56,542 bases of DNA from an uncultured Gammaproteobacteria bacterium (GTDB lineage: Bacteria; Patescibacteriota; Microgenomatia; UBA1406; HO2-37-13b): contig CAYQYZ010000008.1 in assembly GCA_964422025.1 (NCBI GenBank), positions 1-56,542 of the forward strand, given 5' to 3'. Position numbers and translations under genes: made by a program. Below the pieces are notes generated by a model, which saw only the letters and a list, made by a program, of their open reading frames with translations, did no database searches and had not been told where the DNA came from. Shown here one piece after another: positions 37,582 through 39,299 of this stretch. Numbering within the stretch: the first letter of the stretch is position 1; the number at the start of each line of letters is the position of its first letter.

Positions 37582-37947
37582 ATGAAACTCAATAAACTAA
37601 CTCCTGAAGAAGAGCGGGTGATTTTACATAAAGGAACCGAGGCGCCGTTTTCGGGAACGTATGACACGACTTTTAATGAAGGCACATACATTTGTCGCCA
37701 ATGCGAAACTCCATTATATACTTCAAATAGCAAATTTAATTCCGGATGTGGATGGCCTAGTTTTGACCAAGAAATTCCAGGCGCAGTTACAAGAACGGAG
37801 GATCCAGATGGATATGGTGGCTTTGAAATAATTTGTAACACATGCGATGCTCACTTAGGTCATGTATATGACGGCGAACGATTCACAGAAAAAAATACTC
37901 GTCATTGCGTGAATTCTATTTCGTTGAAGTTTGTGCCGAAAAGGTAA
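37582..37947 (+). CDS. msrB: Methionine-R-sulfoxide reductase MsrB (Zn-binding)
   Basis: GTEAPFSG, CRQC, KFNSGCGWPSF, CNTCDAHLGHVY, RHCVNS. Confidence 0.96.
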   Translation: MKLNKLTPEEERVILHKGTEAPFSGTYDTTFNEGTYICRQCETPLYTSNSKFNSGCGWPSFDQEIPGAVTRTEDPDGYGGFEIICNTCDAHLGHVYDGERFTEKNTRHCVNSISLKFVPKR

Positions 37948-37952
37948 CGTTT

Positions 37953-38045
37953 GAGATCCTGAAACAAGTTCAGGATGACAGTAGAGTTCAGGATGACCCT
38001 TCTCCGCTCTGCGAGCTTCGGAAGGGTAAGAGCACTCAGGATGAC
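37953..38045 (-). repeat. Cluster of REP-like repeats: one full 28-mer, two partial copies and a second hairpin type
   Basis: 37953-37980 reverse complement TGTCATCCTGAACTTGTTTCAGGATCTC; partial TCAGGATGAC copies near 37988 and 38036; hairpin CCCTTC...GAAGGG at 37997-38026. Confidence 0.8.
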
Positions 38046-38515
38046 TATTCTCTCCTTAGAAGTTTTAACATCGCAAACATAAATCGTGATTGTACTGCAT
38101 CTTTATTTCGTCGAGTGTGGGCTTTAATAAAAGCAGTCGTTTCTGCAATATCGTCATCTTGTTTATTTTTCGATAAGGTAATTTTTTTTGCTAGATCATA
38201 TATTTCCTCTTCATCGGCCGTAAATTCATACCCGTTATATTGCAAAAAAACTCCTGCTGAAACAATTGAAACACGTTTATTTCCATTATTAAATGGGTGT
38301 ATTTTATTAATGAAGTACATGTAACAGGCCGTTTTTGTGTAAATAGTAGGATATAGATCCTTTTTTCCAAATGTTCGTTGGGCAGAAGCAATTACGCCGT
38401 CTAATTTATCGAAATACGTGTGTTTGAATACCGGAATAGGGTCGTTATTTTTCTTAAAAAAGGACGCAAGTTCATTGCAGATTACTTCGAAGTCCGAAAG
38501 TGTTAAATAAACCAT
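38045..38515 (-). CDS. Doc-type Fic family toxin (death-on-curing)
   Basis: HPFNNGNKR Doc variant of the Fic motif; LYPTIYTKTA. Confidence 0.9.
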   Translation of the reverse strand: MVYLTLSDFEVICNELASFFKKNNDPIPVFKHTYFDKLDGVIASAQRTFGKKDLYPTIYTKTACYMYFINKIHPFNNGNKRVSIVSAGVFLQYNGYEFTADEEEIYDLAKKITLSKNKQDDDIAETTAFIKAHTRRNKDAVQSRFMFAMLKLLRRE

Positions 38516-38649
38516 TATTCATACGACAAACGTTTTAAGGTTTTGCCGTATTTCTTAATCATGACACGGGTATATTTTCGCGTCGTGTCTTCGCGTTTTG
38601 TTTCTTTATTGAAAAGTTTATCGACAAGTTTGGTGAGTTTTTTTTGCAT
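38515..38649 (-). CDS. 44-aa putative antitoxin of Doc (absent from ORF track)
   Basis: Manual translation MQKKLTKLVDKLFNKETKREDTTRKYTRVMIKKYGKTLKRLSYE*; its TAA overlaps the Doc ATG (TAATG); C-terminal Y..TLKRL resembles Doc antitoxin tails. Confidence 0.75.
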   Translation of the reverse strand: MQKKLTKLVDKLFNKETKREDTTRKYTRVMIKKYGKTLKRLSYE

Positions 38650-38692
38650 TTCAATAATGTATCAGATTGATATGATAAATGCAAGTTTTTCT

Positions 38693-38720
38693 GAGATTCT
38701 TCGCTCTGCTCAGAATGACA
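38693..38720 (-). repeat. REP-like 28-nt palindromic repeat, variant copy
   Basis: Reverse complement TGTCATTCTGAGCAGAGCGAAGAATCTC; same length and same TGTCAT and ATCTC ends as the other copies. Confidence 0.7.
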
Positions 38721-38744
38721 AAGTTTCATGTTATAATTCCATAA

Positions 38745-39299
38745 ATGACTCCAGGGAAAATAATATTTGAAGGAGAAACAGATGGTGGAAATGGCTTTGT
38801 AATACGCTATCCAAAACCAGACGACGTTCGAATGCTGCACCGATACATTAATAATCTTTCAAAAGAACAAACCTACGTAACATTCCAAGGCGAGACTATT
38901 TCATTAAAAAAAGAGCAAGAATTTTTGGATTATCAGCTTAATCGAATCGATCAAAAGCAAGCCGTTTTACTCCTCCTCGATGTTGATGGAGTAGTAGAAG
39001 GCGTTGCGGGAATTGATTTAAATGATCACACATCTTCGCATGTTGGAGTTATGGCGATTTCGATGAGTAAAGACTTTCGCGGTCAGGGAATTGGAGGATT
39101 ATTTTTAGATAAACTTATTGATGAAGCGAAAAAATGTTTGAGCGATATGAAATTAATTACACTATCAGTCTTTGCGGTTAACAAAGCTGCTATTAATTTG
39201 TATCAACGATTTGGCTTCAATGAATATGGGCGATTGCCTGGTGGAATTGTGTATAGGGATAAATTCGTTGATCAAATTGAAATGTGTAAAGAGGTATAG
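38745..39299 (+). CDS. GNAT family N-acetyltransferase
   Basis: FRGQGIGG acetyl-CoA motif, LSVFAVNKAAINLYQRFGF. Confidence 0.92.
   Translation: MTPGKIIFEGETDGGNGFVIRYPKPDDVRMLHRYINNLSKEQTYVTFQGETISLKKEQEFLDYQLNRIDQKQAVLLLLDVDGVVEGVAGIDLNDHTSSHVGVMAISMSKDFRGQGIGGLFLDKLIDEAKKCLSDMKLITLSVFAVNKAAINLYQRFGFNEYGRLPGGIVYRDKFVDQIEMCKEV

Follow-up and report, generated by a model that had tools for sequence, protein, structure and literature searches.

The Doc kinase of P1 phosphorylates EF-Tu and stops translation. Its antitoxin, Phd, binds the toxin through an acidic tail. Small antitoxins that have no DNA-binding domain are known as well, among them VbhA and FicA, which are paired with class I Fic toxins, and PaaA2, the partner of ParE2. 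In P1 phd-doc and in the chromosomal pairs of the Doc family (TIGR01550; PDB 3K33 and 9VZC), the toxin has a Fic fold and carries the motif HxFx[DN][AG]NKR, both common to the toxin described here. Our locus further resembles phd-doc in being a two-gene operon, with a small partner gene that lies upstream and runs into the toxin start. It differs in the toxin, which is about 30 aa longer than P1 Doc, and in the partner, which is 44 aa long where Phd has 73, is strongly basic and unrelated to Phd in sequence, and is predicted to form a single helix, without the N-terminal DNA-binding domain of YefM/Phd proteins.

A second group of described elements concerns us here, as the pair lies between repeated palindromes. 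REP sequences of the CGTC/TGTC superfamily are defined as short palindromes present in many copies, with an unpaired tag at one end and a stem that begins with A-T pairs (Di Nocera, De Gregorio and Rocco 2013; PMC3733652). The superfamily includes RPE-4 and RPE-6 of Rickettsia and dRS3 of Neisseria, and the same study found no dedicated transposase for CGTC REPs. For E. coli, a 2009 study, as summarised in PMC3184786, described a chromosomal toxin-antitoxin (TA) pair at a variable intergenic site where REPs occur as well. Strains with and without that pair are known according to this summary, whereas every lineage studied here that has the msrB/GNAT neighbourhood also has the Doc pair.

The genome analysed has 1.04 Mb and 39% G+C and belongs to Candidatus Roizmanbacteria, a member of the CPR bacteria; its contig C8 is the window, that is, the whole stretch of 56,542 nucleotides. 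An earlier note on this DNA had proposed that the Doc gene and a hidden antitoxin gene form a transposase-free mobile cassette bounded by REPs. We favour a different reading, to which we give a probability of roughly 85%: the pair is a resident type II TA module of the CPR chromosome, and REPs have accumulated beside it. What is new is limited to an undescribed family of minimal candidate Doc antitoxins (about 45 residues) in this CPR order, the pair being otherwise an ordinary chromosomal Doc TA module.

Organisation of the locus

The pair is antisense within a run of plus-strand genes, as had been noticed earlier, with msrA, NUDIX and msrB on its left and GNAT, murT and a gatD-like gene on its right. 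The features of the locus are as follows.

37582-37947, plus strand: msrB (SelR domain; Pfam SelR, 3e-42), left neighbour, convergent with Doc
37953-37980, plus strand: complete TGTC-tagged REP hairpin, GAGATCCTGAAACAAGTTCAGGATGACA, with an 8-bp stem
37981-38045, plus strand: two further REP heads, '..GTTCAGGATGAC' and '..CTCAGGATGAC', with no 5' arm of their own
38045-38515, minus strand: Doc (death-on-curing) toxin gene, 156 aa, motif HPFNNGNKR (Pfam Fic, TIGR01550, PDB Doc chains)
38515-38649, minus strand: 44-aa candidate antitoxin ORF, adjoining Doc at all loci found and absent from the ORF annotation
38656-38684, minus strand: putative promoter of the pair, with -35 TTGCAT (38684-38679), a 17-nt spacer and -10 TACATT (38661-38656)
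38672-38660, minus strand: palindrome TATCAATCTGATA (TATCA-N3-TGATA), read from the sequence and not significant
38693-38720, plus strand: complete TGTC-tagged REP unit, GAGATTCTTCGCTCTGCTCAGAATGACA, ATTCT/AGAAT subtype, between two divergent promoters
38745-39299, plus strand: GNAT acetyltransferase gene (Pfam Acetyltransf_1, 1e-14; synteny), linked to the pair in all pair-bearing lineages of the genus

The toxin had been recognised as Doc by its motif, and profile searches agree. The protein matches Pfam Fic (6e-12; PF02661, 46.6 bits against a cut-off of 24) and exceeds the curated threshold of TIGR01550 DOC_P1 (60.9 bits, cut-off 38.65); its PDB matches are Doc chains, 9vzc at 1e-10 and 3k33 (P1 Doc) at 4e-3. 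The active site is of the Doc type and not of the Fic type, HxFx[DE]GNGRxxR, and homologues keep it as HPF[NSL]N[GA]NKR. All the catalytic-motif residues of Doc kinases are present, and the protein may act as they do, phosphorylating EF-Tu and arresting translation. The gene is found once in the genome. A plasmid origin was rejected, as a blastn search of PLSDB returned no match.

A minimal partner of Doc

The 44-aa gene, already seen in the earlier note as hidden and coupled to Doc, ends in a TAA stop that shares one base with the Doc ATG (TAATG). It abuts Doc at every locus examined, 12 of which lie outside the genus; at 12 further loci the two genes overlap by up to 4 nt or stand up to 11 nt apart (a 1-nt overlap here). 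Genes of this type precede Doc in all lineages of the genus, and a homologous gene of 41-53 codons lies directly 5' of Doc in eight genomes from other genera of the order or class, G014 and G039 among them. Conservation extends to the protein and is not confined to the DNA, with identities as low as about 31-37%. The N-terminal half varies and the C-terminus, RKYTRVMIKKYGKTLKRLSYE in the window, is near-invariant, reading [RK]-K-Y-T-[RK]-x-x-I-K-K-Y-x-K-T-L-R-R-L-S-Y-E-stop across the family. With a profile of nine members, 23 clusters were retrieved from 1.84 billion representative proteins, with lengths of 30-53 aa save for two clusters with evidently miscalled starts. When 301 genomes of the class were searched in six frames, seven clear matches emerged, the window genome included, and all but one belong to the same order. 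The 44-aa gene is a real, conserved and dedicated partner of Doc. The pair has the arrangement of type II TA modules, in which a small partner adjoins or overlaps the toxin gene and the pairing is conserved across genomes, and the position of the gene and its coupling to Doc point to an antitoxin.

The protein has no relative in Pfam, NCBIfam, PADLOC or PDB. Ribbon-helix-helix proteins, Phd tails and VbhA-like peptides were considered and rejected, with no profile or PDB match and a single predicted helix; the PDB matches obtained are chance 14-residue stretches of STE20/OSR1 kinases (E 0.6-1.1). An hhalign comparison with an approximate P1 Phd sequence gave a probability of 0.1. In the AlphaFold2 model made from the family alignment, residues 2-43 form one uninterrupted helix (mean pLDDT 84). 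Profile searches and model alike thus place the protein outside the Phd/YefM family, with no profile match and no N-terminal DNA-binding fold, and they support the earlier view that the partner lacks a Phd-like DNA-binding domain, or any other recognisable or globular one. It resembles VbhA, FicA and PaaA2 in being a short helical peptide for which toxin binding is the only evident role, but the inhibitory motif of Fic antitoxins, (S/T)xxxE(G/N), is missing from it (sequence read by eye), and, in a further difference from those systems, no conserved third regulator gene adjoins the pair, whose neighbours differ between genera.

These peculiarities could also be read to mean that the ORF encodes a leader peptide, a regulatory peptide or an accessory protein that binds nucleic acids. 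The peptide is indeed very basic (pI 10.25, 15 K+R against 5 D+E, net charge about +10), and the missing motif and the lack of detectable similarity to that Phd sequence or to any family would fit such a role. Strict linkage and translational coupling to Doc at every locus, a protein sequence held across distant homologues and a position upstream of the toxin, as in phd-doc, speak against it, and we judge it very unlikely.

As an antitoxin, the protein would most likely neutralise Doc through the conserved amphipathic helix at its C-terminus (RKYTRxxIKKYGKTLRRLSYE), which would pack against the toxin. The binding mode may differ from that of P1, since the partner is basic here and the P1 Phd tail is acidic. 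Autoregulation, if there is any, would need the basic helix itself or another factor, as the protein appears to have no globular DNA-binding domain. Single-helix Doc partners of about 45 residues, apparently centred on the Roizmanbacteria order, were previously unnamed; they offer a minimal system in which to ask how little protein suffices to silence a Doc kinase and if these pairs are subject to regulation at all.

Putative divergent promoters

The putative promoter of the pair, TTGCAT-17-TACATT, is the best candidate by position and is conserved in four close lineages, although it matches the consensus weakly and was missed by a consensus promoter scan. Its -10 lies six bases before the 44-aa ATG, so the mRNA of the pair is probably leaderless, and the 44-aa gene and Doc would be translated from this same transcript. 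Distant homologues likewise have a -10-like hexamer (TATACT or TATAAT) 2-12 nt before the ATG. On the other strand, the divergent GNAT gene also appears to be leaderless, its extended -10, TGTTATAAT (38729-38737, plus strand), being located seven bases before the ATG at 38745. The REP at 38693-38720 exactly fills the spacer between the promoter of the pair and this extended -10.

A palindrome had been described over the -10 of the pair. It does exist, but an AT-rich stretch of 61 nt would yield one as good by chance (shuffle p of about 0.4), and it is disrupted in three more distant lineages of the genus (L053, L054 and L058). Being neither significant nor conserved, it is not taken here for an established operator. 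Two distant loci have nominally significant palindromes, of different sequence.

REP sequences at the locus and in the genome

The REP cluster at 37953-38045 and the REP copy at 38693-38720, both reported earlier, are indeed there, and the two complete units have the same orientation. On the minus strand the unit at 37953-37980 reads TGTC-ATCCTGAA-CTTGT-TTCAGGAT-CTC; units of this type with the loop GAAACAAGTTC occur 11 times in the genome. Both extra heads that follow it are of the form '..TCAGGATGAC', and the second encloses an inner hairpin, CCCTTC..GAAGGG. The run extends to base 38045, which is at once the last base of the REP array and the first of the Doc stop codon. A role of the cluster as terminator or as structured RNA was rejected, since it lacks a T-tract, gives fold z-scores between -1.0 and -1.5 and matches no Rfam family. 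The core TCAGRATGAC is found five times in the window, against 0.23 expected.

These units belong to a TGTC/CGTC-tagged family that is spread over the whole genome. Its general form is (T/C)GTC-AT(C/T)CT..-variable apex-..AG(G/A)AT-CTC, and a pattern search finds about 100 units in the 1.04-Mb genome and 5 in a reversed-genome control. The tag is TGTC in 66 units and CGTC in 15, the stem starts with ATYC, and covariation in the stem is near perfect (ATCCT/AGGAT in 37 units, ATTCT/AGAAT in 30, mixed in 2). About 30 units sit in frame well within long ORFs, whose products include SecA, a GT2 glycosyltransferase, O-antigen-ligase-like proteins and several membrane glycosyltransferase- or ligase-like proteins.

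The family agrees with the definition of CGTC/TGTC REPs given in PMC3733652: a short palindrome in many copies, with an unpaired T/CGTC tag at one end and a stem that starts with A-T pairs. Units of 24-40 nt, heterogeneous loops, in-frame copies inside some genes and the lack of a known dedicated transposase are further points of likeness. Differences from that superfamily lie in the host, here a CPR bacterium, in the tail, which is CTC here and CCA there, and in the arrays, which here run head-to-tail with several heads and one tail, whereas head-to-head dimers predominate in PMC3733652.

REP loci are clumped along the genome: 13 of the gaps between loci measure at most 700 nt, where 5.2 would be expected. 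REP-bearing spacers occur on both sides of seven genes of at least 100 aa, against 2.3-2.6 expected; besides Doc, these include topA (topoisomerase I), where both REPs also share one orientation, and ribulose-phosphate-epimerase-like, SpoIID-like and GIY-YIG genes. A position between REPs therefore neither sets the Doc pair apart nor marks it as cargo.

The locus across lineages

The pair adjoins GNAT in at least eight lineages of the genus, whatever their REP content. The two spacers compare as follows.

G000 (window): three-tag REP array on the Doc 3' side; complete REP unit on the promoter side
L050: a different, five-tag array on the Doc 3' side, with the same end, AGGATGAC/TATTCTCTCC; REP-like element of different sequence on the promoter side
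G001, G003 and L036: bare AGGATGAC, 8 nt, on the Doc 3' side; sequence and length vary on the promoter side
L053: REP-free on both sides, with msrB and Doc sharing 4 nt on the Doc 3' side
L058: 15-nt spacer with no tag on the Doc 3' side, left neighbour a Ser hydrolase in place of msrB; untagged GC palindrome on the promoter side
L054: locus ends before the Doc 3' side; on the promoter side, pair and GNAT separated by two additional genes

On the Doc side, the terminal AGGATGAC beside TATTCTCT is common to G001, G003, L036 and L050, and the remainder of the array is specific to the window genome. Counting the latter, five lineages have AGGATGAC next to the Doc stop, and three have GCTCnnAATGAC about 10 nt ahead of the GNAT -10. 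REP tags of the same orientation thus occupy orthologous positions in most lineages of the genus, which indicates that the association of REPs with this site is old. The promoter-side spacer differs in sequence and length in G001, G003, L036, L050, L053 and L058, and in L054 the antitoxin-GNAT spacer has received a two-gene unit (95 aa and a 567-aa Cys-rich secreted protein).

Outside the genus, Doc homologues are found in other gene contexts, so the pair does move over long times. Almost all of these contexts are without REPs: around seven Doc/antitoxin loci, a stretch of 1.5 kb is free of REP cores, and the REP-rich G039 has cores on one side only.

Resident module or mobile cassette

In the cassette proposed earlier, the same-orientation REPs would be the ends of a non-autonomous unit, and a HUH/Y1 enzyme acting in trans on the REP hairpins would have captured or moved the Doc pair. 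The shared orientation of the REPs on the two sides, the terminal tags at orthologous positions in several lineages and the different contexts of Doc/antitoxin pairs in other genera are all consistent with this scheme, as is the presence in the genome of a RAYT-like Y1 gene. Several observations nevertheless contradict it. Synteny of the pair in relatives without REPs had been named beforehand as the finding that would tell against a cassette, and L053 presents it, with the pair in place and no REP on either side; in L058, too, the pair keeps its position, and the Doc side is free of TGTC tags. REP bodies are wholly different from one lineage to the next, with the pair unchanged; the same bracketing is seen for topA and five other genes, and pairs in other genera almost all do without REPs. 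A second copy of the REP-flanked pair, looked for at other loci of the genome, was not found. All eight lineages with this neighbourhood have the pair, whatever their REPs. The unit therefore shows neither multiple bounded copies nor presence/absence polymorphism with breakpoints at the repeats. The search for an enzyme acting in trans led to one HUH/Y1 gene in the genome, at C7:37770-38405, which is RAYT-like, with an NF047646 score of 59 bits that falls short of the 80-bit cut-off. The hairpins on its two flanks are GGCAACCTGTCAGGT, which in exact form occur nowhere else in the genome, and not TGTC REPs. Across 41 genomes of the order, the copy number of RAYT-like genes is unrelated to the count of TGTC-REP cores (Spearman rho 0.04, p 0.81): G039 has 84 cores and no RAYT-like gene, and G014 has 14 cores and nine copies. 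Neither the dispersed REP family at the flanks of the gene nor the co-occurrence that marks REPIN/RAYT systems (REPtrons) is thus seen, and on account of the different flanking hairpin and the missing correlation we rejected this gene as the mobiliser of the REPs. The REPs are neighbours of the pair and not its ends; a mobile cassette is not supported, and we regard it as highly improbable.

An msrB-GNAT junction without the pair was sought in 4 species of the genus, 40 relatives, one metagenome scan and 7 contigs, and none was found. This and the old tags leave a little room for a weaker version of the same idea, in which AGGATGAC touching the Doc stop and GCTCnnAATGAC about 10 bases before the GNAT -10 are what remains of the ends of an ancient capture through REPs, carried out by some enzyme that acts on TGTC REPs, and the REP-free lineages lost their tags secondarily. 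If this were true, the CGTC/TGTC REP superfamily would have its first unit that carries cargo, but we give it very little credence. Alternatively, the REPs may mark a plastic intergenic hot spot in which the pair and other genes were integrated by illegitimate or homologous recombination, with REPs as target or by-product. The two-gene insert of L054, the Ser hydrolase that replaces msrB in L058, the clumping of REP loci and the E. coli precedent, as summarised in PMC3184786, all point this way; against it, no empty site was found that would place a REP before the pair, and REP-free lineages are equally plastic. We consider a hot-spot origin unlikely, and note that it is compatible with a resident TA module rather than opposed to it.

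As a resident module, the pair would have stood beside GNAT since before the known lineages of the genus split. The REPs on its two sides would be copies of the genome-wide family that accumulated, expanded and decayed lineage by lineage, in the two spacers to which an antisense gene pair gives rise, one a 3'-3' junction and the other a spacer between divergent promoters. The cassette would have given CGTC/TGTC REPs a role in moving cargo; on the evidence the REPs are bystanders, and that claim is to be dropped. The locus instead provides a well-sampled case of fast growth and decay of REP arrays at one fixed junction in reduced CPR genomes. The branching inside the genus is not settled by the GNAT tree, including whether the REP-free clade (L053 and L058) is basal. 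Two further members of the comparison, G002 and the metagenome contig L035, are rearranged, with no msrB and with a P-type ATPase gene upstream of GNAT.

Possible exchange, and an insertion, at the Doc locus

Two species of the genus (G003, at L023, and G001, at L024) share a tract of ~545 nt that is 99.6-99.8% identical, equivalent to window 37891-38532 and running from the final ~55 nt of msrB across the junction and the whole Doc gene into the antitoxin gene, of which it takes in the final ~18 nt; the genes flanking it are just 53-85% identical between the same two species. The Doc of G003 is only 90% identical to that of its close sister L036, though the flanks are 95-97% identical. The tract is either a recent exchange, by homologous recombination, of the toxin allele alone or an assembly chimera.

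On the promoter side, one lineage (L054 442-2429, Logan SRR22387889) carries a two-gene unit inserted between the antitoxin promoter and the GNAT gene, which marks this spacer as a hot spot for insertions. One gene of the unit codes for a membrane protein of 95 aa, the other for a secreted, Cys-rich repeat protein of 567 aa with no match in Pfam. The divergent GNAT and antitoxin genes both appear to be leaderless: TGTTATAAT lies seven bases 5' of the GNAT ATG (window 38729-38747) and TACATT six bases 5' of the antitoxin ATG (window 38656-38649), with no Shine-Dalgarno sequence at either start.

REP units at the junction and elsewhere in the genome

The msrB-Doc arrays (window 37953-38045 and L050 1690-1800) each consist of several 'heads', made of a tag plus an arm, and a single complete hairpin. 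They are wholly different between lineages, but the terminal AGGATGAC adjoining the Doc stop codon is retained, and it looks as if the arrays had grown outward from a fixed seed.

Elsewhere in the same genome (G000), intact long genes contain TGTC-tagged units in frame, as in SecA (..NGHSEHSEESQSDRHPELSAQGGSGSS..); ~30 of the ~100 units are located deeper than 90 nt within an ORF of 100 aa or longer. Rickettsia palindromic elements likewise reside within genes.

Genes with in-frame TGTC-tagged units (G000)
C1:26364-29264, secA
C1:55427-56389, GT2 gene
C9:10202-11509, long gene
C5:2693-5476, long gene
C4:23633-25279, long gene
C4:40657-42285, long gene

Two further loci of G000 combine a gene with flanking repeats.

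C3:91624-91926, GIY-YIG nuclease-like gene (100 aa), antisense between + and - strand genes
C7:37722-38560 (L013 1270-2110), RAYT-like Y1 transposase gene (212 aa, single in G000) and its hairpins

TGTC REPs border the GIY-YIG gene on both sides, in opposite orientation. Of 41 genomes in the order, 32 have homologues of the RAYT-like gene, with up to 9 copies. On either side of it stands a GGCAACC(T/C)GTCAGGTGGAC(A/G)GTGC hairpin, in direct orientation, which bears no relation to the TGTC REPs.
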